Translations under genes and position numbers: made by a program
NCBI GenBank assembly: GCA_964016885.1
Contig: OZ024750.1
Location: 39,308,001-39,372,000, forward strand
DNA from: Eledone cirrhosa
Lineage: Eukaryota
Length of the DNA stretch: 64,000 nt
Direction: 5' to 3'
Shown: in pieces, positions 12,015 through 63,746 of the stretch
Numbering within the stretch: position 1 is the stretch's first letter
Layout: the number at the start of each line of letters is the position of its first letter
The notes under the pieces: generated by a model
What the model was told of the DNA's origin: nothing
The model's database searches: none
The model's input: the letters and a program-made list of their open reading frames with translations, nothing else

Positions 12015-12115
12015 GATTGGATTTCTGCGGCTATAAATTGACGGAAGTGGTAAGATCCACGCGTGAAATTCGCGCCAAATTTCTCCCCTTCATATCGGCT
12101 GGTTTCCAAGATGGC
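12015..12115 (+). promoter_or_regulatory. Putative IPO9 proximal promoter / 5' UTR
   Basis: Local CpG-rich patch with ETS-like ACGGAAGTG (12041-12049), E2F-like TTCGCGCCAAA (12069-12079) and YY1-like CAAGATGGC overlapping the ATG. Motif resemblance only. Confidence 0.5.
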
Positions 12116-12243: not shown

Positions 12244-15200
12244 GTGCATGTCAAATTTTTTTCTATTTCTCTCCCTTTCTTTTGTTTAACACACCACCAT
12301 ACAAATCACACGCATATGTACCCCATCTCTTACATTTCTCACCCTGTCTCTCTCTTTATACTTTCATTCTGAGAGAGAAAACTTCTGAATGTCACTTGCG
12401 TTTTATAACTAATTCTTATGTTCATAATTGTAAACTCTGTCCAAGCTTAACTTTAATTCACATAGGGTTTTATTGTGTATTGTTGTAAACATCCTCGTTG
12501 TTGTTGTCTTATCTAACAACGTAATAAATTATTATTGTCGTTTGTTATATATATCAGTTATATTTGAAAGGAAATTAGAAAAAGAAACTATCTTAAAATT
12601 AATGTTAGTCTAATTAAATTTCGTTATTGTTGTTTATTTTCACAAGTGTATTTCACCAATGTTAATGTTACATAGTTTTCCAGACATATCTTTCGTTAAT
12701 GTTTAAGTGACGACCAATTGCAGCTTTTTGTAAACTTTATTTCATATTACAATTTTGTTTCTATATCGATCAGCTCGGGTTCGATCATGCGATCGAATCC
12801 CGACTATTAATCGACATTTCTTCAGATATGAGGGTTTACATGGGTGGTCCTTAAGTTACCCACCTATTAACATGTGTATGTATATATATATATATGAAAA
12901 TGTTAGACCCCGACAGCTTGAGCTCTGCCGTCGGGGTCATACTTTTTCCTATTACCCACTCTACTACCCTAAGTATTGAGTACTCTGGTGTGTTATAGTC
13001 CATCTGGTTCCTTACCACACCTCCGTTATGTGTATATATGTATGTATAAAGTAAAAGAAATGAAACAAAATTTAGTGAGATTGCTATAAAAACACATTGA
13101 CATAGTGTGTGTATATATATACGCATGTAATGTGTGTATATTATCATATATTGAATATATTCTTTATTCTTATAACTAAGTCCTAACTTTTCAAGTTGAA
13201 ATATGTAGAACCTCCCGCCGAGGTTAACTTTGCCTTTCATCCTTACGGGGTCGATAAAATAAAGTACCAGTAATGTACTGAGTAATTGCTGGCCTTGTGC
13301 CAAAAGTAGAAACAATTATATATCAACCGGCATTGTTTTACCTTCTTTATTCACAGACGGATAAAACTTTCCGTTAAAAGGAACTGAAGCTCAAAGTTCA
13401 TGATTGTTCTTCAAAGATGAATATATTTTCATGTCTTCTTAATGTCGAAATAATTTCTCTCCGCTAGTTTATTTTTACGCGGTCTTTTTCGGTAAAATTA
13501 TCTCTAATTTGCTGTCGGCTGACTCCTTTTATTGACATGTGATGAAGGCTTTGCCACGCCCCCCCAGCTGTAGAGCACATGTTAAAATATAGGGCTCTAG
13601 ATATGGCTGTTGTTTAGCCCCAGGTCAGCTTTTTATTCAGCAGCCTTGATTAAAAATATTCCTGTTATTACCAATCTGTCTTTTATTTTTCTCCAGACAC
13701 AGTGTATCTAGGACTACATTATGCTATGTGATGTCTAATTTTTTTTTTAAACGGAAGGGTATCCTCTGAAGGATATTTGGCTACTATTTCTAGCATATGA
13801 AATAACTACGTATACCTCGTTGTTTATTCTATATTTGGATAGCTAAAACTGTAGAACAATGGATTAAACGAATGCTTTAGTTGATTCTCTTACTGTTCTG
13901 AGGTCAACATTTGTTGGTCACCCTTCTGGGACCGATAGGATAAATACCAGTAAAATACTAGGGTCGATTTAATCGAATGTCCCCTTCTTAAAATATGTGT
14001 CTGTTAGAGATCGTCATTATATATTGGCAGAATCGTTAGAGCACCAGACAAAATACCATGTGATATTTCGTTACGTTCGGAGTTCAAATTCCGTCCAAAT
14101 TTTGTCTTTCTTAAATTCTTTTTCTGAATTGCCCTCTGTCTAAAAAATAAGCTGTGAGCTTGTGTGTGTGTGTGTGTGGGGGGGGGGGGGGGGTTCTATG
14201 TGGTCTGTGAAGTTGCTAGAAATATCACCCAAATCTTGCTGAAATCACATCTCCCCAAATAATATACTCCTGGCCTACATATTCTTTAAGATGAGGTGGT
14301 CACCACTGGAATGTCTTTGACGATCAGGTTTGACCTGGGGCTAAACAACCATTTTATTTGTGGGTGGGTAGATTGGAGTGTTGGACAAAATGGAGTTGAT
14401 ATAGTACAAGTCATGTACTACCATTTAGCATTTAAACTGGCTGTATCTGGCCAGAATTCTCTCACCTCTTTCTGTTCAAACTGACCACTCATATTGATGT
14501 TAAGGTATTGTTCTTAAAATAAATATCAAAATCTCATAGATTCAATATTATGTGAGGTAAAGCCTTTACTATGAAAATACAATAGTAAATATAATGTAAA
14601 TGTTGTGAGATATTATGTGAGGTAAAGCCTTTACCATGAAAATATAACAGTATATATAGAGTAATGTAAATGTTATGTGAGGTAAAGCCTTTACCATGAA
14701 AATGTAATGGTATATATAGAGTAATGTAAATGTGAGGTAAAGCCTTTACTATGAAAATACAATAGTATATATTGAGTTATGTTATGTGATATATTATGTG
14801 AGGTAAAGCCTTTACCATGAAAATATAATGTAAATAGTAAAGAGTTAAACCTGATGGTGTTCATCCTTCTCTAGGTTTGAACATAGCTGATTTCATGCAG
14901 TGAATGAGGAATTGGCCCCCATTACTGCACTGGTATTTAATCAACTCGACTCTCAAACAAATGAAAGGCAATGTTGGTCTCGGCAGGATTTGAACACAGA
15001 GCGTAGAGTGCCAGTTTGAGTAATACAAGGTATTCCATTTGATGCCCTAACTGCTCTGCCAATTCTCCACTTACAATCAGGACTTTCATCCATGGACCCT
15101 TATCATTTGATGAAACCAGAGGGGAGCTGTTGTGACAAATGGAGTATCTTGGGCATTAAAACTGGCAAAGTGGCAAAGCTCACCTTTCTCCAAGTCGGAA

Positions 15201-22345: not shown

Positions 22346-23310
22346 AGTCTAGTCTCACTGATCTATATAGTATATTAGTGATATCACCATAGTCCAGTCT
22401 CACTGGTCTATAGTATATTAGTGCTATCACCATAGTCTAGTTTCACTGGTTTATATTATATTAGTGATATCATCATAGTCTAGTCTCACTGGTTTATATT
22501 ATATTAGTGATATCATCAGTCCAGTCTCACTGGTCTATATAGTATATTAGTGATATCACCATAGTCCAGTCTCACTGGTCTATAGTATATTAGTGATATC
22601 ATCATAGTCTAGTTTCACTGGTCTATAGTATATTAGTGATATCATCATAGTCCAGTCGCACTGGTTTATATTATATTAGTGATATCACCATAGTCCAGTC
22701 TCACTGGTCTATATAGTATATTAGTGATATCACCATAGTCCAGTCTCACTGGTCTATAGTATATTAGTGATATCATCATAGTCTAGTTTCACTGGTCTCT
22801 ATAGTATATTAGTGATATCACCATAGTCTAGTCTCAATGGTCTATAGTATATTAATGATATCATCATAGTCCAGTCTCAATGGTTTATAGTATATTAGTG
22901 ATATCATCATAGTCTAATCTCAGTGGTTTATAGTATATTAGTGATATCATCATAGTCCAATCTCAGTGGTTTATAGTATATTAGTGATATCATCATAGTC
23001 CAGTCTCAGTAGTCTATAGTATATTAGTGATATCATCATAGTCCAATCTCAGTGGTTTATAGTATATTAGTGATATCACCATAGTCCAGTCTCAATGGTC
23101 TCGATAGTATATTAGTGATATCACCATAGTCCAGTCTCAGTGGTCTATAGTATATTAGTGATATCACCATAGTTCAGTCTCAATAGTCTATAGTATATTA
23201 GTGATATCACCATAGTCTGGTCTCAATAGTCTATAGTATATTAGTGATATCATCTATAGTATATTAGTGATCTTATAGTTCAGTCACAATGGTCTGTAGT
23301 ATATTAGTAT
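22346..23310. repeat. About 42-44-bp minisatellite starting at +4 of IPO9 intron 5
   Basis: Unit approximately AGTCCAGTCTCACTGGTCTATAGTATATTAGTGATATCACCAT, about 22 copies. Confidence 0.9.
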
Positions 23311-24959: not shown

Positions 24960-27846
24960 GTATCCTTTTTTAACCAATTACTCTATATTTACTATTGTAT
25001 TTTCACAGTAAAGTCTTTACCTCACATATCTCACATAGCATTTACATTACTCTATATATACTATTGTATTTTCACAGTAAAGTCTTTACCTCACATATCT
25101 CACATAACATTTACATTACTCTATATATACTATTGTATTTTCACAGTAAAGGCTTTACCTCACATAATACCTCACACAACATTTACATTACTCTATATAT
25201 ACTATTGTATTTTCACAGTAAAGTCTTTACCTCACATAATATCTCGCATAACATTTACATTACTCTATATATACTATTGTATTTTCACAGTAAAGGCTTT
25301 ACCTCACATAATATCTCACATAACATTTACATTACTCTATATATACTATTGTATTTTCACAGTAAAGTCTTTACCTCACATAATATCTCACAACATTTAC
25401 ATTACTCTATATATACTATTGTATTTTCACAGTAAAGGCTTTACCTCACATAATACCTCACACAACATTTACATTACTCTATATATACTATTGTATTTTC
25501 ACAGTAAAGTCTTTACCTCACATAATATCTCGCATAACATTTACATTACTCTATATATACTATTGTATTTTCACAGTAAAGGCTTTACCTCACATAATAT
25601 CTCACATAACATTTACATTACTCTATATATACTATTGTATTTTCACAGTAAAGTCTTTACCTCACATAATATCTCGCACAACATTTACATTACTCTATAT
25701 ATACTATTGTATTTTCACAGTAAAGTCTTTACCTCACATAATATCTCACATAACATTTACATTACTCTATATATACTATTGTATTTTCACAGTAAAGGCT
25801 TTACCTCACATAATATCTCACATAACATTTACATTACTCTATATATACTATTGTATTTTCACAGTAAAGTCTTTACCTCACATAATATCTCACAACATTT
25901 ACATTACTCTATATATACTATTGTATTTTCACAGTAAAGGCTTTACCTCACATAATACCTCACACAACATTTACATTACTCTATATATACTATTGTATTT
26001 TCACAGTAAAGTCTTTACCTCACATAATATATCGCACAACATTTACATTACTCTATATATACTATTGTATTTTCACAGTAAAGGCTTTACCTCACATAAT
26101 ACCTCACACAACATTTACATTACTCTATATATACTATTGTATTTTCACAGTAAAGTCTTTACCTCACATAATATCTCGCATAACATTTACATTACTCTAT
26201 ATATACTATTGTATTTTCACAGTAAAGGCTTTACCTCACATAATATCTCACATAACATTTACATTACTCTATATATACTATTGTATTTTCACAGTAAAGT
26301 CTTTACCTCACATAATATCTCACAACATTTACATTACTCTATATATACTATTGTATTTTCACAGTAAAGGCTTTACCTCACATAATACCTCACACAACAT
26401 TTACATTACTCTATATATACTATTGTATTTTCGCAGTAAAGGCTTTACCTCACATAATACCTCACACAACATTTACATTACTCTATATATACTATTGTAT
26501 TTTCACAGTAAAGGCTTTACCTCACATAATACCTCACACAACATTTACATTACTCTATATATACTATTGTATTGTCACAGTAAAGGCTTTACCTCACATA
26601 ATACCTCACACAACATTTACATTACTCTATATATACTATTGTATTTTCACAGTAAAGGCTTTATCTCACATAATATCTCGCATAACATTTACATTACTCT
26701 ATATATATATACTATTGTATTTTCACAGTAAAGGCTTTATCTCACATAACATTTACATTACTCTATATATACCATTATATTTTCACAGGTGGATTGGCAG
26801 TATCGGTAGAGGGTCTGACGCTATGCTTTGCAGCAAAGAGTTACGCCCCTTTATGGTTTGAGTTCAAATCCCGCCGAGGTTAACTTTGCCTTTCATCCTT
26901 ACGGGGTCGATAAAATAAAGTACCAGTAATGCACTGGATAATTGCTGGCCTTGTGCCAAAAGTAGAAACAATTATATTTTCACAGTAATGGCTTTATCTC
27001 TCATAACATTTACATTACTCTATATATACTATTATATTTTCACAGTAATGGCTTTATCTCACATATTATTGAATCTATAAGATTTTGATATTATTTATTT
27101 TGAGAACAATACCTTAACATCAGTATGAGCAGCTGGTTTGAATAGAAAGAGGTAAGAGAATTCTAGCCGGATATGGCCAGTTTAAATGCCAAAGGGTTAA
27201 TCTATATAACAGTACTGTTTGTCACACTTCAATATGGTCTGTCAAAAACGTTCCAATTTTTTTTAGAATTCATAGAACACGAATGGATGAGGTGGGAGTG
27301 AGGGGTGTATGTGTGTGTCAAACATTTTAAAACATGGTTGCATCCCTTTATCATGTTGGAAATCATCAGGATTTGGGCTCATGAAAGTCTGTTGATTTCC
27401 AGAAGACAACTAATGATAAAAGAGTGTCTGTGTTTTCTACTATTTGTCCATGACTCGTGTGCTCAAATCTTGAGTTATATATATATTAGTCTTTTAGTGG
27501 TTAGGGTTCCTTTTCTGGACTGGGTGGGGCAAGGCATGTAGTTTGTCATTGCTTTTCAGGATAGGACAAATGGGCCCAGTCATTAAAACACCCAAGAAAC
27601 CTCTTGTGAGATATAACTTGGTAGGAGTCTAGCTGAAACTGCATAGATGTGAGCTGTAACAACAGCAACAGCATGATAGAACTGCGACATCCTGTCATTA
27701 AAACACCCAAGAACCCTCTTGTGAGATGTAACCCCAGAAGAAGCCAGCTAATCTTACATGTGTTACCTGTCACAACAGGTATATGCTGTGGCCACCCCAT
27801 TAGGTTATTTTGTTTGTGTCAAAATATTGTCCTTAACTCATTTCAG
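24960..27846 (+). other. U12-type (minor spliceosome) GT-AG intron of IPO9
   Basis: 5' site GTATCCTTT (24960-24968); branch site TCCTTAAC (27830-27837) 9 nt before the exon; splicing restores the frame (TT|T TAT GTA CGT = F-Y-V-R). Confidence 0.92.
24977..26788. repeat. 60-bp MITE-derived satellite, about 30 copies. Same family at 14545-14830, 29925-30125, 40637-41410, 51995-53205, 54200-54540
   Basis: Unit ACATTTACATTACTCTATATATACTATTGTATTTTCACAGTAAAGGCTTTACCTCACATAATATCTCACATA; source of the YFHSKGFTSHNISH ORFs. Confidence 0.92.
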
Positions 27847-29829: not shown

Positions 29830-30569
29830 GTATGTGACCTTTTTCTTTTCTTTTAAAATTTATTTGTTGCATCATCACTACCATTTTACATCTATTTTTC
29901 ACACTTACATGAGTGAGACCCTTTAACATTTACATTACTCTATGTATACTATTGTATTTTCATGGTAAAGGCTTTACCTTGCATAATATCTCACATAACA
30001 TTTACATTACTCTATATATACTATTGTATTTTCATGGTAAAGGCTTTACCTCACATAATATCTCGCATAACATTTACATTACTCTATATATACTATTGTA
30101 TTTTCATGGTAAAGGCTTTACCTTGCTTAATTATCTCACAATATTGAATCTATGAGATTTTGACATTATTTATTTTGAGAACAATACCTTAACATCAGTA
30201 TGAACAGCCAGTTATGACCGGTTTAAACAGAAAGAGGTGAGAGAATTCTGGCTGGATACAGCCGGTTTAAATGGTTAGACAGTTCAGATGACTGTCTTGG
30301 TCTTCTCTTCCATTTTGATATGGTTTCTGTGGCTAGATGCCCTTTCTAATGCTAACTTCTTCATGGTATGTACCTGGTTGATTTTATTGTGGCACCATCA
30401 CTACCACATTTCAACACTAGGGTCACTTGCATCTTTGGCCAGGCTGGGAGGACTGTGATAGGAAGTGAGGAAGAGGGAGAGGGGTTTAGGCTGTCTATTA
30501 CTAACCAGTGGAGGGAGGCATAGCTTTAAAGGAAGTGACCGATGCCTAAAGGTATTGGGGACTGTTGCT

Positions 30570-40037: not shown

Positions 40038-41826
40038 GTAAGTACTTTTACCATTCACACAGCTTCACATAGATTTCTAATGTTTCTCAAGTTCTATTAT
40101 TTCTTACGTTACCTGGTCACTAATGATACACCTGTAGCTCTCAGACAGATGTATGGTTCTGTAACTCCCGAGGGAGTCATAGGGGTGCTGTATTATATGA
40201 AGTCTCTAGGGTATTTTGTAACCCAGGCAGAGCCCATGTTATCTCCAGGCCTGAATACAGCAGATTTTTTCCAGAGTAGGATAGAGAGTCTGAGAGAATG
40301 GAAGTGAGAAAGAGTTATAGATGAAGGATTGAGCCCAGTACTTGACTGGTATTTTTTTATCGACTTTGAATGGATCAAAGGCAAAGTTAACTTCAGCAGG
40401 ATTTGAACTCGGAGAGCAGGGAACCAAAATAAGTATGATAAAGCATTCTATCCAACATTCTAATGACTCTGCCAATTCGCAGCCGCTCTCAGACAAATAT
40501 AGAATGTAATAGTTTGGAGTTCTTTGATGGATAAATTGACTTCCAAATTAGATTTAGACATGTCTTTTCTCATACTATTTCAATTTTATTCTTTGACTTT
40601 AGTCATGCTGATCTGTGCTTAATCCTTTAACATCTTCATTACTCTATATATACTATTGTATTTTCACAGTAAAGGCTTTACCTCACATAATATCTCACAT
40701 AACATTTACATTACTCTATATATACTATTGTATTTTCACAGCAAAGGCTTTACCTCACATAATATCTCGCATAACATTTACATTACTCTATATATACTAT
40801 TGTATTTTCACAGTAAAGGCTTTACCTCACATAATATCTCACATAACATTTACATTACTCTATATATACTATTGTATTTTCACAGTAAAGGCTTTACCTC
40901 ACATAATATCTCACATAACATTTACATTACTCTATATATACTATTGTATTTTCACAGCAAAGGCTTTACCTCACATAATATCTCGCATAACATTTACATT
41001 ACTCTATATATACTATTGTATTTTCACAGTAAAGGCTTTACCTCACATAATATCTCACATAACATTTACATTACTCTATATATACTATTGTATTTTCACA
41101 GTAAAGGCTTTACCTCACATAATATCTCACATAACATTTACATTACTCTATATATACTATTGTATTTTCACTGTAAAGGCTTTACCTCACATAATATTTC
41201 ACATAACATTTACATTACTCTATATATACTATTGTATTTTCACAGTAAAGGCTTTACCTCACATAATATCTCCCATAACATTTACATTACTCTATATATA
41301 CTATTGCATTTTCACAGTAAAGGCTTTCCCTCACATAACATTTACATTACTCTATATATACTATTGTATTTTCATGGTAATGGCTTTACTTCACATAATA
41401 TCTCACATGATATCGAATTTATAAGATTTTGATATTATTTATTTTGACAACAATACCTTAACATCAGTATGAGCAGCTGGTTACAGCCAGTTTGAACAGA
41501 AAGAGGTGAGAGAATTCTGACTGGATACGGCCTGATACATTTTTATTTTCTGTTTTTCAGGTCTGGTATTTATTTTATTGATCTCTCTTGATCAAATTGC
41601 TAGGCTATTGGATATACTCATAGACACATTTATAACAACATACATTGATGGACACACACACACACACACACACCCACATCATCATCATCGTTTAATGTCT
41701 ATCTTCCATGCTAGCATGGGTCAGACGGTTTTGTTGCATTTGATGCGGCAATGGTCGTGAGACCGTGTCTCGCTCGCACGGAAGGTCTTTTTACAGCTGG
41801 ATGCCCTTCCTAACACCAACCACATT

Positions 41827-51900: not shown

Positions 51901-53207
51901 CGGTCACCAAACCTAACTTGCCTCTAACTGGGACAAACCGATCTAACCCATGCTAGTGTGGAAGATAGACATTAATCAGTGATGCTGCTGCTGATGGTAT
52001 ATATAGAGTAATGTAAATGTTATGTGGTAAAGACTTTACTGTGAAAATACAATAGTATATATAGAGTAATGTAAATGTTATGTGAGATATTATGTGAGGT
52101 AAAGACTTTACTGTGAAAATACAATATTATATATAGAGTAATGTCAATGTTGTGCGAGATATTATGTGAGGTTTAAAGCCTTTACTGTGAAAATACAATA
52201 TTATATATAGAGTAATGTAAATGTTATGTGAGATATTATGTAAGGTAAAGCCTTTACTGTGAAAATACAATAGTATATATATAGAGTAATGTAAATGGTA
52301 TGAGATATTATGTAAGGTAAAGCCTTTACTGTGAAAATACAATAGTATATATAGAGTAATGTAAATGTTATGTGAGATATTATGTAAGGTAAAGCATTTA
52401 CTGTGAAAATACAATAGTATATATAGAGAGTAATGTAAATGGTATGAGATATTATGTGAGGTAAAGCATTTACTGTGAAAATACAATAGTATATATAGAG
52501 TAATGTAGATGTTATGTGAGATATTATGTAAGGTAAAGCATTTACTGTGAAAATACAATAGTATATATATAGAGTAAAGTAAATGGTATGAGATATTATG
52601 TGAGGTAAAGCATTTACTGTGAAAATACAATAGTATATATAGAGTAATGTAGATGTTATGTGAGATATTATGTGAAGTAAAGCCTTTACTGTGAAAATAC
52701 AATAGTATATATAGAGTAATGTAAATGTTATGTGAGATATTATGTGAAGTAAAGCCTTTACTGTGAAAATACAATAGTATATATAGAGTAATGTAAATGC
52801 TATGTGAGGTAAAGCCTTTACTGTGAAAATACAATATTATATATAGAGTAATGTAAATGTTGTGTGAGATATTATGTGAGGTTTAAAGCCTTTACTGTGA
52901 AAATACAATATTATATATAGAGTAATGTAAATGGTATGAGATATTATGTAAGGTAAAGCCTTTACTGTGAAAATACAATAGTATATATATAGAGTAATGT
53001 AAATGGTATGAGATATTATGTAAGGTAAAGCCTTTACTGTGAAAATAAAATAGTATATATAGAGTAATGTAGATGTTATGTGAGATATTATGTGAGGTTT
53101 AAAGCCTTTACTGTGAAAATACAATATTATATATAGAGTAATGTAAATGGTATGAGATATTATGTGGGTTAGTATATATAATGTAAATGTTATGTGAGAT
53201 ATTATTA

Positions 53208-54199: not shown

Positions 54200-54660
54200 T
54201 GTAAGATAAATCCTTTACCGTGAAAATACAATAGTATATATAGAGTAATGTAAATGTTATGTGAGATATGTGAGGTAAAGCCTTTACTGTGAAAATACAA
54301 CAGTATAATAGAGTAATGTAAATGTTATGTGAGATATTATGTGAGGTAAAGCCTTTACTGTGAAAATACAACAGTATAGATAGAGTAATGTAAATGTTAT
54401 GTGAGATATTATGTGAGGTAAAGCCTTTACTGTGAAAATACAATAGTATATATAGAGTAATGTAAATGTTATGCAAGATATTATGTGAAGTAAAGCCTTT
54501 ACTGTGAAAATACAATAGTATATATAGAGTAATGTGAATATTAAAGGGTTAAAGAAAATATTGTGGATAGTGTGTAAAAGATGGGAAATAATTGTTTGTT
54601 GTTTTTTTAAAGCCACATTTTCTATTTGATAATAACTTGTCTTAATTCTGTTTTATGCAG

Positions 54661-56345: not shown

Positions 56346-56545
56346 NNNNNNNNNNNNNNNNNNNNNNNNNNNNNNNNNNNNNNNNNNNNNNNNNNNNNNN
56401 NNNNNNNNNNNNNNNNNNNNNNNNNNNNNNNNNNNNNNNNNNNNNNNNNNNNNNNNNNNNNNNNNNNNNNNNNNNNNNNNNNNNNNNNNNNNNNNNNNNN
56501 NNNNNNNNNNNNNNNNNNNNNNNNNNNNNNNNNNNNNNNNNNNNN
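56346..56545. other. Assembly gap (200 N)
   Basis: Run of N. Confidence 0.99.
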
Positions 56546-58031
56546 CATTTTGCAGTGGAATGATAGGACCCCAGTCCTGTCATCTCATTTCTATAGCTGA
56601 GTAAACTGGAGCAATGTGAAATAAAGTGTCTTGCTCAAGGAAACAACACATCACCCGGTCTGAGAGTTGAACTCACAACCTTTCGATTGCAAGGCCAATG
56701 CTCTAACCATTAAGCCATGTAATAATACAATGTTTACAAACATTACCAGTTATACAGGTAGATAGATCTGAACCAATTTTTTGTTATATCTTAACTCTTA
56801 CCTATTACTCATCTTTTAAGAAATTCTCTAAAATAACCCCCAAACTTGATATACATCATGATATTTACACATGTGTGTTAGAAGGGCATCCATCTGTAGA
56901 CACCAACTAAGCTATGTGCCTCCATGTTTATATTGAGAATAACAGTTAGAGAAAATGTTTATACTTTAAACTTTACCATTAAACCGGCCATATCCGGCCA
57001 GAATTCTCTCACCTTCTTTCTGTTCAAACCAGCTGTACTGGCTGCTCATACTGATGTTAAGGTATTTTTCTCAAATAAATATCAAAATCTCATAGATTCA
57101 ATATTATGTGTGCTAATTATGTGAGGTAAATACTTTACCATGAAAATCATCATCATCATCATCATCAACGTTTAACGTCCGTGTTCCACGCTTGCATGGG
57201 TTTGGACGGGGGTAGTCCCACTTGAGGCAAGAGTGATTGTCTTGCTCGCATAGGACTGTCTGGCAGGTTTTCTACAGTTGGATGCCCTTCCTAACACCAA
57301 CCACATTTACAGTATAATTGTAAATATAAAGTAATGTAATTGTAAATATAATTGTAAATATAAAGTAATGTAAATGTTATAGGGTTAAATTTAAATTGTT
57401 TTATTTTATGAGTATATATGGTAGTTACATTGTATTTAAATTATACCTGGGTAAACTTGCCCTTCAACCAGACAAGGTCATTAATATATGTACCAGTCAT
57501 TTATTGGGACAATAATAAAAAAGACAGTCTATTATTTTCAAATAATTCTGAAAATAATCAAGAATTTGAAGTGATTTAGTAAATAACTTTCTTGTTATTA
57601 AGGTGGTATTTGGAACATAACTTAACAAAGTTTCTCATAAATGAGGGAAGGTTTTTTAAACACTTTAAAACAAAAATTACATATAACAGTTTCTGATTTA
57701 GGTACAAGGCCAACAGTTTGGTGGAGGGGAAGTTGATTAAATCGACCCCAGTGTATTACTGGTGTTTTATTTTACCGACCTCCCCCATAAGGATGAAAGG
57801 TAAAGTTACCCTTGGTGGGATTTGAACTAAGAACTAAAGGGACATAACTCTGCTGCATAGCATTGCATCTGACCCTCTACCAATACTGCCAATCTAAAGA
57901 CTTTTATAACAGAAATTAGGGTGATTTGTCATCAAAAGGGTTAATTAGACTGTCCCTTCCTTTAAAATTTGTTTCTTTGTTAAAAATCACTAGAAATTAA
58001 ATTTTTGTTTTTTGTTTCATTCCTAATTCAG

Positions 58032-58234
58032 GTAAAAATGGTTTGTTCTACATCGTCCAGGTGATAGCCAAATTACTTGACCCTAAGACTCCCGAATTTA
58101 CAGCTACATTTGTGGGCAAACTAGTATCAGTGGTTATCAGCAAAGTTGGTGGTCAGCTTGGAGAAGATCTCGACTTGATGCTTAGGTCTGTCTTGAGCAA
58201 AATGCAACGTTCAGAAACATTATCAGTTATACAG
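58032..58234 (+). CDS. IPO9: Importin-9 exon 19 (exon 18 not seen)
   Basis: (G)[39 protein letters not shown]...[14 protein letters not shown]; begins phase 1; first donor CAG|gtaata at 58235. Confidence 0.9.
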
Positions 58235-60577
58235 GTAATAATGCAATGTTTACAAACATTATCAGTTATACAGGTAATAATGCAATGTTTACAAACATTA
58301 TCAGTTATACAGGTAATAATGCAATGTTTACATACATTATCAGTTATACAGGTAATAATGCAATGTTTACAAACATTATCAGTTATACAGGTAATAATGC
58401 AATGTTTACAAACATTATCAGTTATACAGGTAATAATGCAATGTTTACAAACATTATCAGTTATACAGGTAATGCAATGTTTACAAACATTATCAGTTAT
58501 ACAGGTAATGCAATGTTTACAAACATTATCAGTTATACAGGTAATGCAATGTTTACAAACATTATCAGTTATACAGGTAATGCAATGTTTACAAACATTA
58601 TCAGTTATACAGGTAATGCAATGTTTACAAACATTATCAGTTATACAGGTAATGCAATGTTTACAAACATTATCAGTTATACAGGTAATGCAATGTTTAC
58701 AAACATTATCAGTTATACAGGTAATGCAATGTTTACAAACATTATCAGTTATACAGGTAATAATGCAATGTTTACAAACATTATCAGTTATACAGGTAAT
58801 GCAATGTTTACAAACATTATCAGTTATACAGGTAATGCAATGTTTACAAACATTATCAGTTATACAGGTAATAATGCAATGTTTACAAACATTATCAGTT
58901 ATACAGGTAATAATGCAATGTTTACAAACATTATCAGTTATACAGGTAATAATGCAATGTTTACAAACATTATCAGTTATACAGGTAATAATGCAATGTT
59001 TACAAACATTATGCAATGTTTACAAACATTATCAGTTATACAGGTAATGCAATGTTTACAAACATTATCAGTTATACAGGTAATGCAATGTTTACAAACA
59101 TTATCAGTTATACAGGTAATGCAATGTTTACAAACATTATCAGTTATACAGGTAATGCAATGTTTACAAACATTATCAGTTATACAGGTAATAATGCAAT
59201 GTTTACAAACATTATGCAATGTTTACAAACATTATCAGTTATACAGGTAATGCAATGTTTACAAACATTATCAGTTATACAGGTAATGCAATGTTTACAA
59301 ACATTATCAGTTATACAGGTAATGCAATGTTTACAAACATTATCAGTTATACAGGTAATGCAACATTTTCAAACATTATCAGTTATACAAGTAATAATGC
59401 AATGTTTACAAACATTATCAGTTATACAGGTAATAATGCAATGTTTACAAACATTATCAGTTATACAGATAATGCAATGTTTACAAACATTATCAGTTAT
59501 ACAGGTAATAATGCAATGTTTACAAACATTATCAGTTATACAGGTAATGCAATGTTTACAAACATCAGTTATACAGCTAATGCAATGTTTACAAACATTA
59601 TCAGTTATACAGGTAATAATGCAATGTTTACAAACATTATCAGTTATACAGGTAATAATGCAATGTTTACAAACATTATCAGTTATACAGGTAATGCAAT
59701 GTTTACAAACATTATCAGTTATACAGGTAATAATGCAATGTTTACAAACATTATCAGTTATACAGGTAATAATGCAATGTTTACAAACATTATCAGTTAT
59801 ACAGGTAATGCAATGTTTACAAACATTATCAGTTATACAGGTAATGCAATGTTTACAAACATCAGTTATACAGGTAATAATGCAATGTTTACAAACATTA
59901 TCAGTTATACAGGTAATGCAATGTTTACAAACATCAGTTATACAGGTAATGCAATGTTTACAAACATTATCAGTTATACAGGTAATAATGCAATGTTTAC
60001 AAACATTATCAGTTATACAGGTAATGCAATGTTTACAAACATCAGTTATACAGGTAATGCAATGTTTACAAACATTATCAGTTATACAGGTAATAATGCA
60101 ATGTTTACAAACATTATCAGTTATACAGGTAATAATGCAATATTTACAAACATTACCAGTTATCATCATCATCATTTTACGTCTGCTTTTCCCTGCTTGC
60201 AAGGGTGGGACGGGAACTGATTCTGGCTTGATTTCTACAGCTGGATGCCCTTCCTCACACCAACCGCATTTACAGTGTGTGTTGAGTGCTTTTTTTTTTG
60301 TGGCTCCTCCACGTCCACTTTACAGTGTGGGCTGGGTGCTTTTTTGCCATGGCACCTCCACGACCATTTTACAGTAGAATGATATGGACCCCAATCCTAT
60401 CATCTCATTTCTACAGCTGAGTAAACTGGAGCAATGTGAAATAAAGTGTCTTGCTCAAGGAAACAACACATCACCTGGTCTGAGAGTTGAACTCACAACC
60501 TTTCGATTGCAAGGCCAATGCTCTAACCATTAAGCCATGTAATAATGCAATGTTTACAAACATTATCAGTTATACAG
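58202..60577 (+). repeat. 36/39-bp exon-derived tandem array, about 50 copies, interrupted by a SINE at 60162-60540
   Basis: Unit ATGCAATGTTTACAAACATTATCAGTTATACAG-GTA(ATA); the first copy is the 3' end of IPO9 exon 19. Confidence 0.93.
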
Positions 60578-61608
60578 GTAGATAGATCTGAACCAATTTT
60601 TTGTTATATCTTAACTCTTACCTATTACTCATCTTTTAAGAAATTCTCTAAAATAACCCCCAAACTTGATATACATCATGATATTTACACGTGTGTTAGA
60701 AGGGCATCCATCTGTAGACACCAAGACAAAAGACAGATATGTATGAGCATGACATGGTCTCCAGACCATGTCATGCTCATAACGACTGCCTGTCTAACCC
60801 ATGCAAGTGTGGAAAAATAAACATTAAATGATGATCAGATACATATATGGAGGCACATGGCTTAGTGGTTAGAACATTGGCCTTGCAATCGAAAGGTTGT
60901 GAGTTCAATTCTCAGACCGGGTGATGTGTTGTTTCCTTGAGCAAGACACTTTATTTCACATTGCTCCAGTTTTTTCACATTGCTCCACATTTACAGTGTA
61001 GACTGGGTACTATTTGTTGCGTCACCAACACAACCACTTTACAGTGTAGACTGGGTACTTTTTGTCGTGTCACCAACACAACCACTTTACAGTGTAGACT
61101 GGGTACTTTTTGTTGTCACCAACACAACCACTTTACAGTGTAGACTGGGTACTATTTGTTGTCACCAACACAACCACTTTACAGTGTAGACTGGGTACTT
61201 TTTGTCATGTCACCAACACAACCACATTTACAGTGAAGACTGGGTACTTTTTCTCGTGTCACCAACACAACCACTTTACATTGTAGACTGGGTACTTTTT
61301 GTCGTGTCACCAACACAACCACTTTACAGTGTAGACTGGGTACTATTTGTTGCGTCACCAACACAACCACTTTACAGTGTAGACTGGGTACTTTTTGTCC
61401 TGTCACCAACACAACCACTTTACAGTGTAGACTGGGTACTTTTTGTCGTGTCACCAACACAACCACTTTACAGTGTAGACTGGGTACTTTTTGTCATGTC
61501 ACCGACACAACCACTTTACATTGTAGACTGGGTACTTTTTGTCGTGTCACCGACACAACCATTTCTGTCATCTAGTATCTTATTGTATCTTATTTTATGT
61601 TATTTCAG

Positions 61609-61775
61609 AGTTTGGTGATGATCTTTGCACATCTCACCCACACCCAAATGGAGGCCTTATTGGCATTTCTTTCCAACGTACCTGGTCCAACAGGTAAACC
61701 AGCATTACATTTTGTTCTTACTGAATGGTGTTCACGTCAGCATCTGTTCTATGGTGCCTATGAGAACAAAGTCAG
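61609..61775 (+). CDS. IPO9: Importin-9 exon 20; gene continues beyond window
   Basis: [55 protein letters not shown]; cag/gtgagt. Confidence 0.95.
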
Positions 61776-63322: not shown

Positions 63323-63746
63323 TATTTATCTGAAAAAACAAATTAGTAATAAGAAAGTTAGATGTGTCCTCGAAAACCTCCATATCATCATCGTCATCAT
63401 CTTCATTTTACGTCCGCTTTTCCCTGCTTGCAAGGGTGGGACAGGAAGTGATTCTAGCTTGATTTCTACAGCCGGATGCCCTTCCTAACACCAACCTAAT
63501 TTACAGTGAGTGCTGGGTGCTTTTTTGCCGTGGCACCTCCACGACCACTTTGCAGTGGAATGATAGGGACCCCAGTCCCTATCATCTCATTTCTACAGCT
63601 GAGTAAACTGGAGCAATGTGAAATAAAGTGTCTTGCTCAAGGAAACAGCACATCACCCGGTCTGAGAATTGACCTCACAACCTTTCGATTGCAAGCCACT
63701 AAGCCATGTATATATATATAATGTATGTATATATATATATATATAT

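Follow-up and report, generated by a model that had tools for sequence, protein, structure and literature searches.

Minisatellites that reach across an exon-intron boundary have been described before. In the passages cited here of Borensztajn et al. (2006, PMC1557585), the first monomer of the 37-bp IVS7 VNTR of human F7 spans the exon-intron boundary, and its pseudo-donors are competent and identical to the true donor, yet only the most upstream donor is used. The same passages give 10–25 reiterated donors behind the true one in IFI6 (6-16) intron 2, CBS intron 13, LMNB2 and PDGF intron 4; for LMNB2 and PDGF only the first donor is reported to be used, for 6-16 and CBS the first three, i.e. 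two extra. For ATP2A1, the cited part of Hellsten et al. (2011, PMC3265369) describes how an intron can arise when AGGT is duplicated in tandem, and the length of a VNTR in ABCA7 intron 18 is reported, in the part of PMC5954066 cited here, to affect splicing.

We analyzed a stretch of 64,000 nt from the octopod Eledone cirrhosa (the window), in which the importin-9 gene (IPO9) offers a large and clean invertebrate example of this known oddity: 49 near-identical donors, 21 of them in frame, of which apparently only the first is used. The 36-nt stretch formed by the end of exon 19 and its donor was amplified to an intronic minisatellite, most likely a tolerated by-product that is spliced out whole from donor 1. 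Since the extra donors are in frame and free of stops, decay cannot hide their use, which makes the locus a fair natural test of first-donor preference outside mammals. Its importance would grow only if leakage proved to scale with repeat length.

The gene and its amplified exon end

The gene was identified as IPO9 by an exon 94% identical to the named Octopus vulgaris importin-9, and the closest solved structure to its protein is human Importin-9. By tblastn, exons 1–17, 19 and 20 were mapped to the window; as exon 18 is missing from it, “exon 19” is a number by homology only. Exon 19 (58032..58234, plus strand; 203 nt, phase 1 to phase 0, aa 727–794) is placed by tblastn and by the spliced contig of run X4, with 0 differences over 58031–58234, and terminates at 58234 as ...ATG CAA CGT TCA GAA ACA TTA TCA GTT ATA CAG|GTA. 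Exon 20 (61609..61775, plus strand; SLVMIF...) carries the acceptor of the array-bearing intron. Elsewhere in the gene, over window positions 12111–40040, a few IPO9 substitutions at otherwise shared positions may be real or assembly errors (exon 1 DGDC for DGDR, exon 10 FVADED for FVEDED, exon 16 DLLIV for DPLIV), and a 43-nt minisatellite at 22346–23260 begins at +4 of the exon 5 donor, the donor itself not being copied.

The repeat seed (58202..58237, plus strand) consists of the last 33 exon bases plus GTA and holds donor 1 (58234|58235, CAG|GTAATAAT). It is followed, on the same strand, by an in-frame part (58238..59010) of 20 further 36/39-nt units with donors 2–21, which closes with a 20-nt truncated unit, and by an out-of-frame part (59011..60162) that comprises donors 22–48; here one unit (at 59194) is truncated to 20 nt, four have lost 3 nt and three lack CAG|GT. 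A detached last unit with donor 49 (60541..60590, plus strand; CAG|GTAGATAG) then precedes the probable ancestral intron start. Counted from 58202, 55 units start with ATGCAA and 49 CAG|GT sites are present (22 GTAATAAT, 26 GTAATGCA, 1 GTAGATAG), and a comparison of the 36-nt unit with the exon end and its GTA gives 33 identical bases out of 36, for which the chance is ~4e-16. This confirms the original prediction of an exon end and donor amplified about 50-fold. The three substitutions specific to the units, which it described as fixed across the array, indeed recur throughout the 54 intronic units (in 53, 54 and 54 of them), and the IPO9 frame stays open without a stop from donor 1 to donor 21 (58235–58985), as predicted; the stop at 59045 was seen as well, and its cause is the 20-nt truncated unit after donor 21, which shifts the frame to a TAA. 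Its account of the array needed amendment: the second 20-nt truncation and the three units without CAG|GT are newly seen, and the single array proposed for 58202..60590 is real but continuous only to ~60162, where a 378-nt repeat detaches the last unit.

The exact unit has 44 matches in the 3.0-Gb genome (G000), all 44 of them within the IPO9 array, and thus arose locally. The predicted origin by tandem duplication of exon end and donor is likewise supported. In the mechanism that we propose, a single duplication of the seed would have been followed by three substitutions in the second copy and by amplification through slippage or unequal exchange; a TAA slip would have given rise to the 39-nt unit type, a dispersed repeat would have inserted near the 3' end of the array, and at least the tail would later have been duplicated. 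No selection is needed to account for the open frame, as the seed derives from coding sequence and has a length divisible by three. In favor of a by-product, units that break the frame or the donor are tolerated within the array. Against it, one may hold that donors 1–21 without exception keep the frame and that damage is confined to the 3' part, a pattern which selection could also produce.

The array tail, the upstream gap and the age of the intron

The 378-nt dispersed repeat lies inside the penultimate unit (60163..60540, minus strand) and aligns with copies at ~63393–63698 and 60854–60972. We take it to be SINE-like; a search with ARAGORN found no tRNA in it. Upstream of exon 19, the end of this repeat recurs together with the last unit and the intron start (56546..56906, plus strand), directly after an assembly gap of 200 N (56346..56545). 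This stretch is a near copy of 60390–60724, in which the repeat end is followed by the last unit, by gtagatagatctg and by another ~150 nt; its 186 nt outside the repeat differ by 2 substitutions plus an indel of 2 nt. Over 56725–56830 the copy is uncovered by all four sequencing runs compared (see below), run X1 included. The join 56906|56907 enters a remnant of the head of the 378-nt repeat via 4–5 nt of microhomology, as in tandem duplication.

Exon 18 (aa 703–726), which is needed for the frame, was not found on either strand of the window, nor in G000 by a strict whole-protein search and a search with a 30-aa piece, queries that do not imply its absence. It is probably hidden in the 200-N gap, and a tandem duplication of ~3.8 kb whose first copy is likewise hidden there would explain both the duplicated tail and the missing exon. 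No second variant of exon 19 was seen in the contigs of X1.

The intron itself is old. Among read-through short proteins from other animals, 40 of 40 continue Q|V at the exon 19 junction, which implies that no intron was gained, and the same donor is found in four IPO9 loci from metagenomes (L152–L155). The closest read-through relative, P0059, continues VDNLRPI, and the window tail after donor 49 reads VDRSEPI. This similarity, along with a contig of run X5 whose fit ends after GTA, is suggestive of gtagat... being the ancestral intron start. Hence, of the unique sequence and probable intron start originally proposed behind the last unit, the uniqueness is lost to the near copy at 56546–56906, while the intron start is retained, if weakly.

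Donor use and alternative readings

For scoring the splice signals, matrices were built on 18 donors and 18 acceptors taken from the IPO9 gene, whose boundaries were set by eye and may be wrong in one or two cases. Donors of the 39-nt type, donor 1 included, score 6.0, those of the 36-nt type 3.9 and the last donor 8.2, with real donors at 0.8–11.1; out of 11 possible matches to U1, these types reach 9, 7 and 8, respectively. Judged by their sequence, all array donors are plausible donors. Behind donor 1 there are 48 further CAG|GT sites, 21 of which share its 11-nt context, and in donors 2–6 this context is identical. As demonstrated for human F7, preference for the most upstream donor would follow from polarity in the 5'-to-3' direction and from exon definition over the 203 nt of exon 19; donor 1 also belongs to the better-pairing 39-nt type (9/11 versus 7/11 U1 matches).

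Four of the 23 listed runs were compared as assembled contigs over 56725–58285. Run X4 bears the same species label; its library type is not on record, and since its contig matches the exon alone, we regard the run as RNA. This single contig of 3,539 nt (depth 28.3) follows the genome over 58031–58234 and departs from it at donor 1. The depth of 13.9 in the bin 58209–58261 is the share of this contig alone, and the depth is 0 in 58262–58285; no base beyond 58234 is covered and no X4 contig enters the array, where it should be kept in mind that contigs drop rare forms. Provided that the record counts its positions in its own direction, the contig extends 2,229 nt upstream of the exon match and 1,106 nt downstream of it, arms that suit a whole transcript (2,178 and 714 nt coding); from this length we infer that the contig continues into exon 20. 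Use of an array donor would show at exon 19–20 junctions as TGTTTACAAACA...CAG joined to exon 20. The contig's departure at 58234 and the lack of cover beyond indicate that donor 1 is the main donor, as seen in assembled contigs of one run. Splicing at 58235 only, in every tissue, had been named beforehand as the mark of an inert array, and the one spliced contig, from this one run of assembled contigs, agrees with it. In run X5 (organism B), a DNA-like contig fits 58003–58237 and ceases right after GTA, leaving the array uncovered; in X9 the exon is not covered.

Altogether, these data fit best with what had originally been listed as a fallback, a tolerated accident, considering the X4 contig at donor 1 and the named precedents for the layout. 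A leaky choice of donor, in which donor 1 dominates and low constitutive use of donors 2–3 lengthens a minority of molecules by 13 or 26 residues, with no regulatory role, seems rather unlikely to us. The identical context of donors 2–6 and the blindness of contigs to rare forms would allow for it, and some leakage is plausible given that, in the cited passages of PMC1557585, IFI6 and CBS use two extra donors; on the other hand, the X4 contigs cover no base beyond the exon, and no longer IPO9 turned up when proteins were searched with the repeat peptide, a result that is weak by the tool's own caveat. It is very improbable, in our view, that donors 2–21 produce graded IPO9 isoforms and later donors lead to nonsense-mediated decay, with array length setting form or dose. 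Such a length-tunable ladder, an idea of the original prediction, would profit from 21 consecutive in-frame donors without a stop and from an insert that would sit at the turn between two helices: in a predicted O. vulgaris model (pLDDT 81–89), the seed covers the end of helix 771–786, a 3-residue turn and the start of helix 790–817. Yet the only spliced contig uses donor 1, no indel occurs over aa 770–803 in 20 aligned orthologues and no insertion at the junction in any of 34 fetched proteins spanning exons 19–20; moreover, in organism B, where a contig does fit the exon, the array is not seen, and the open frame is already explained by the origin and length of the seed. This idea was thus not borne out by the contigs and proteins compared, which would show common forms and miss rare ones.

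Recursive splicing or incipient intron gain would have the AG|GT units act as acceptor and then as donor, for stepwise removal of the intron or as the source of new introns. CAG|GT is present in every intact unit, AGGT tandem duplication can create an intron (PMC3265369, in the part cited), and stepwise removal would give the same mRNA and stay invisible in contigs. As an acceptor, however, the unit scores −5.6 as compared to 0.9–13.9 for the 18 real acceptors (a small matrix with boundaries set by eye) and has 9 pyrimidines in 18 nt as compared to 11–18, which argues against recursive splicing; the AG|GT signature invoked for it thus comes without a strong acceptor. Nor could the suggested intron gain be upheld, since the position is ancient and shared by all 40 read-through relatives, and there is neither a new exon nor an intron at a new position. 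We regard this entire scenario as extremely improbable. Hardly any credence is due, finally, to an assembly artefact that would make the array or its length wrong near a contig end. The gap and the duplicated tail sit 1.3–1.9 kb upstream of the array and exon 18 is missing, but the DNA-like run X1 reaches a depth of ~128 on the first units versus 5.2 on the exon, indicating that the repeat is present in reads, even if X1 may be the assembly's own source, and the array units carry distinct variants plus an insertion.

Junction-spanning repeats at other loci and in known systems

Tandem arrays with a period of at least 15 cover 32% of the window. A rough estimate, based on 25 arrays, a non-array gene span of 29.8 kb and an assumed seed of 45 nt, yields a boundary-spanning array in 3.8% of cases per junction and in 77% for at least one of 38 junctions. 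With arrays making up about a third of the window, the capture of one splice junction is thus expected by chance. Boundary-spanning arrays were found at none of 110 kinase loci in G000 (110 of 138 matches, with an array cover of 7–12% and some single large exons) and at none of 23 other IPO9 loci in G000, which is fewer than the repeat density of the IPO9 gene itself predicts; several arrays at these loci start or end within 30 nt of a boundary. Such an array is therefore uncommon, not improbable. At two of the G000 loci, minisatellites end just before kinase-exon acceptors (L137:188–676 and L093:4–696), the L137 unit being pyrimidine-rich and ending in AG. A 72-nt (also 60-nt) minisatellite family recurs on both strands in several IPO9 introns of the window (14544–14836, 24977–26749, 29924–30140, 40628–41408, 52026–53166 and 54200–54543), so that some arrays stem from a dispersed seed.

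Three further independent junction duplications were observed among the four IPO9 loci from metagenomes, in L152, L153 and L154, which are bivalve-like by protein similarity, and none in L155. L152, a query picked because a repeat had already been seen there, carries a minisatellite at the same IPO9 donor (1721–2477), whose 30/31-nt units number at least 25 and include 11 exon bases; 12 CAG|GT and 12 GCA|GTAAGT sites occur in it, and its read-through repeat varies among 9 related proteins. L154 has a 63-nt repeat at the other end of the same intron (1964–2216): the acceptor, together with the opening 14 codons of the exon behind it, stands there in four in-frame copies, and splicing to the first of them would lengthen the protein by 63 residues. 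The end and donor of a later IPO9 exon form two 111-nt in-frame copies in L153 (1938–2159), possibly an assembly duplicate. The idea of a repeat hotspot at this IPO9 donor, which L152 had raised, is not supported, as none of 40 further read-through relatives has a repeat, a count in which many relatives stop within a few codons and short or out-of-frame repeats would be missed.

We hold it to be quite unlikely that splicing draws on the 20 additional in-frame donors at a low frequency which rises with array length, whereby polymorphism would tune the share of importin-9 with 12–13-residue insertions at the helix-helix turn, or of decay-bound transcripts, and that, more broadly, repeat-rich mollusc genomes keep making donor or acceptor ladders in IPO9 (the octopus donor, the L152 donor, the L154 acceptor). 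If true, these ladders would be natural tests of splice-site polarity.

The locus was not found in literature on octopus combined with minisatellite or tandem repeat and intron, a search whose coverage mostly leaves out subscription journals. In its layout, the IPO9 array belongs to the junction-spanning minisatellites with pseudo-donors of the F7, IFI6, CBS, LMNB2 and PDGF type; the following comparisons refer to the cited parts of the respective papers. With ABCA7 it shares the intronic VNTR; the reported effect of length on splicing concerns ABCA7. ATP2A1 is similar as regards the tandem duplication of a segment with AG|GT, which in that gene falls within coding sequence and gives rise to a new intron, whereas in IPO9 it affects an old donor, only lengthens the intron and provides poor acceptors. 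Compared to IFI6, CBS, LMNB2 and PDGF, IPO9 has about twice as many donors, and no use of extra donors was seen in the X4 contigs. The closest parallel is F7, for which copy-number polymorphism and pseudo-donor competence have been shown, whereas the IPO9 array is known from the sequence of one assembly. In both genes the first monomer crosses the boundary (in IPO9 with 33 exon bases plus GTA), the donor is reiterated and the most upstream one is used, in IPO9 according to X4; but while F7 has 5–9 copies and 4 exon bases, the array described here unites 55 units, 33 exon bases and 49 donors, 21 of them in frame, in an invertebrate.
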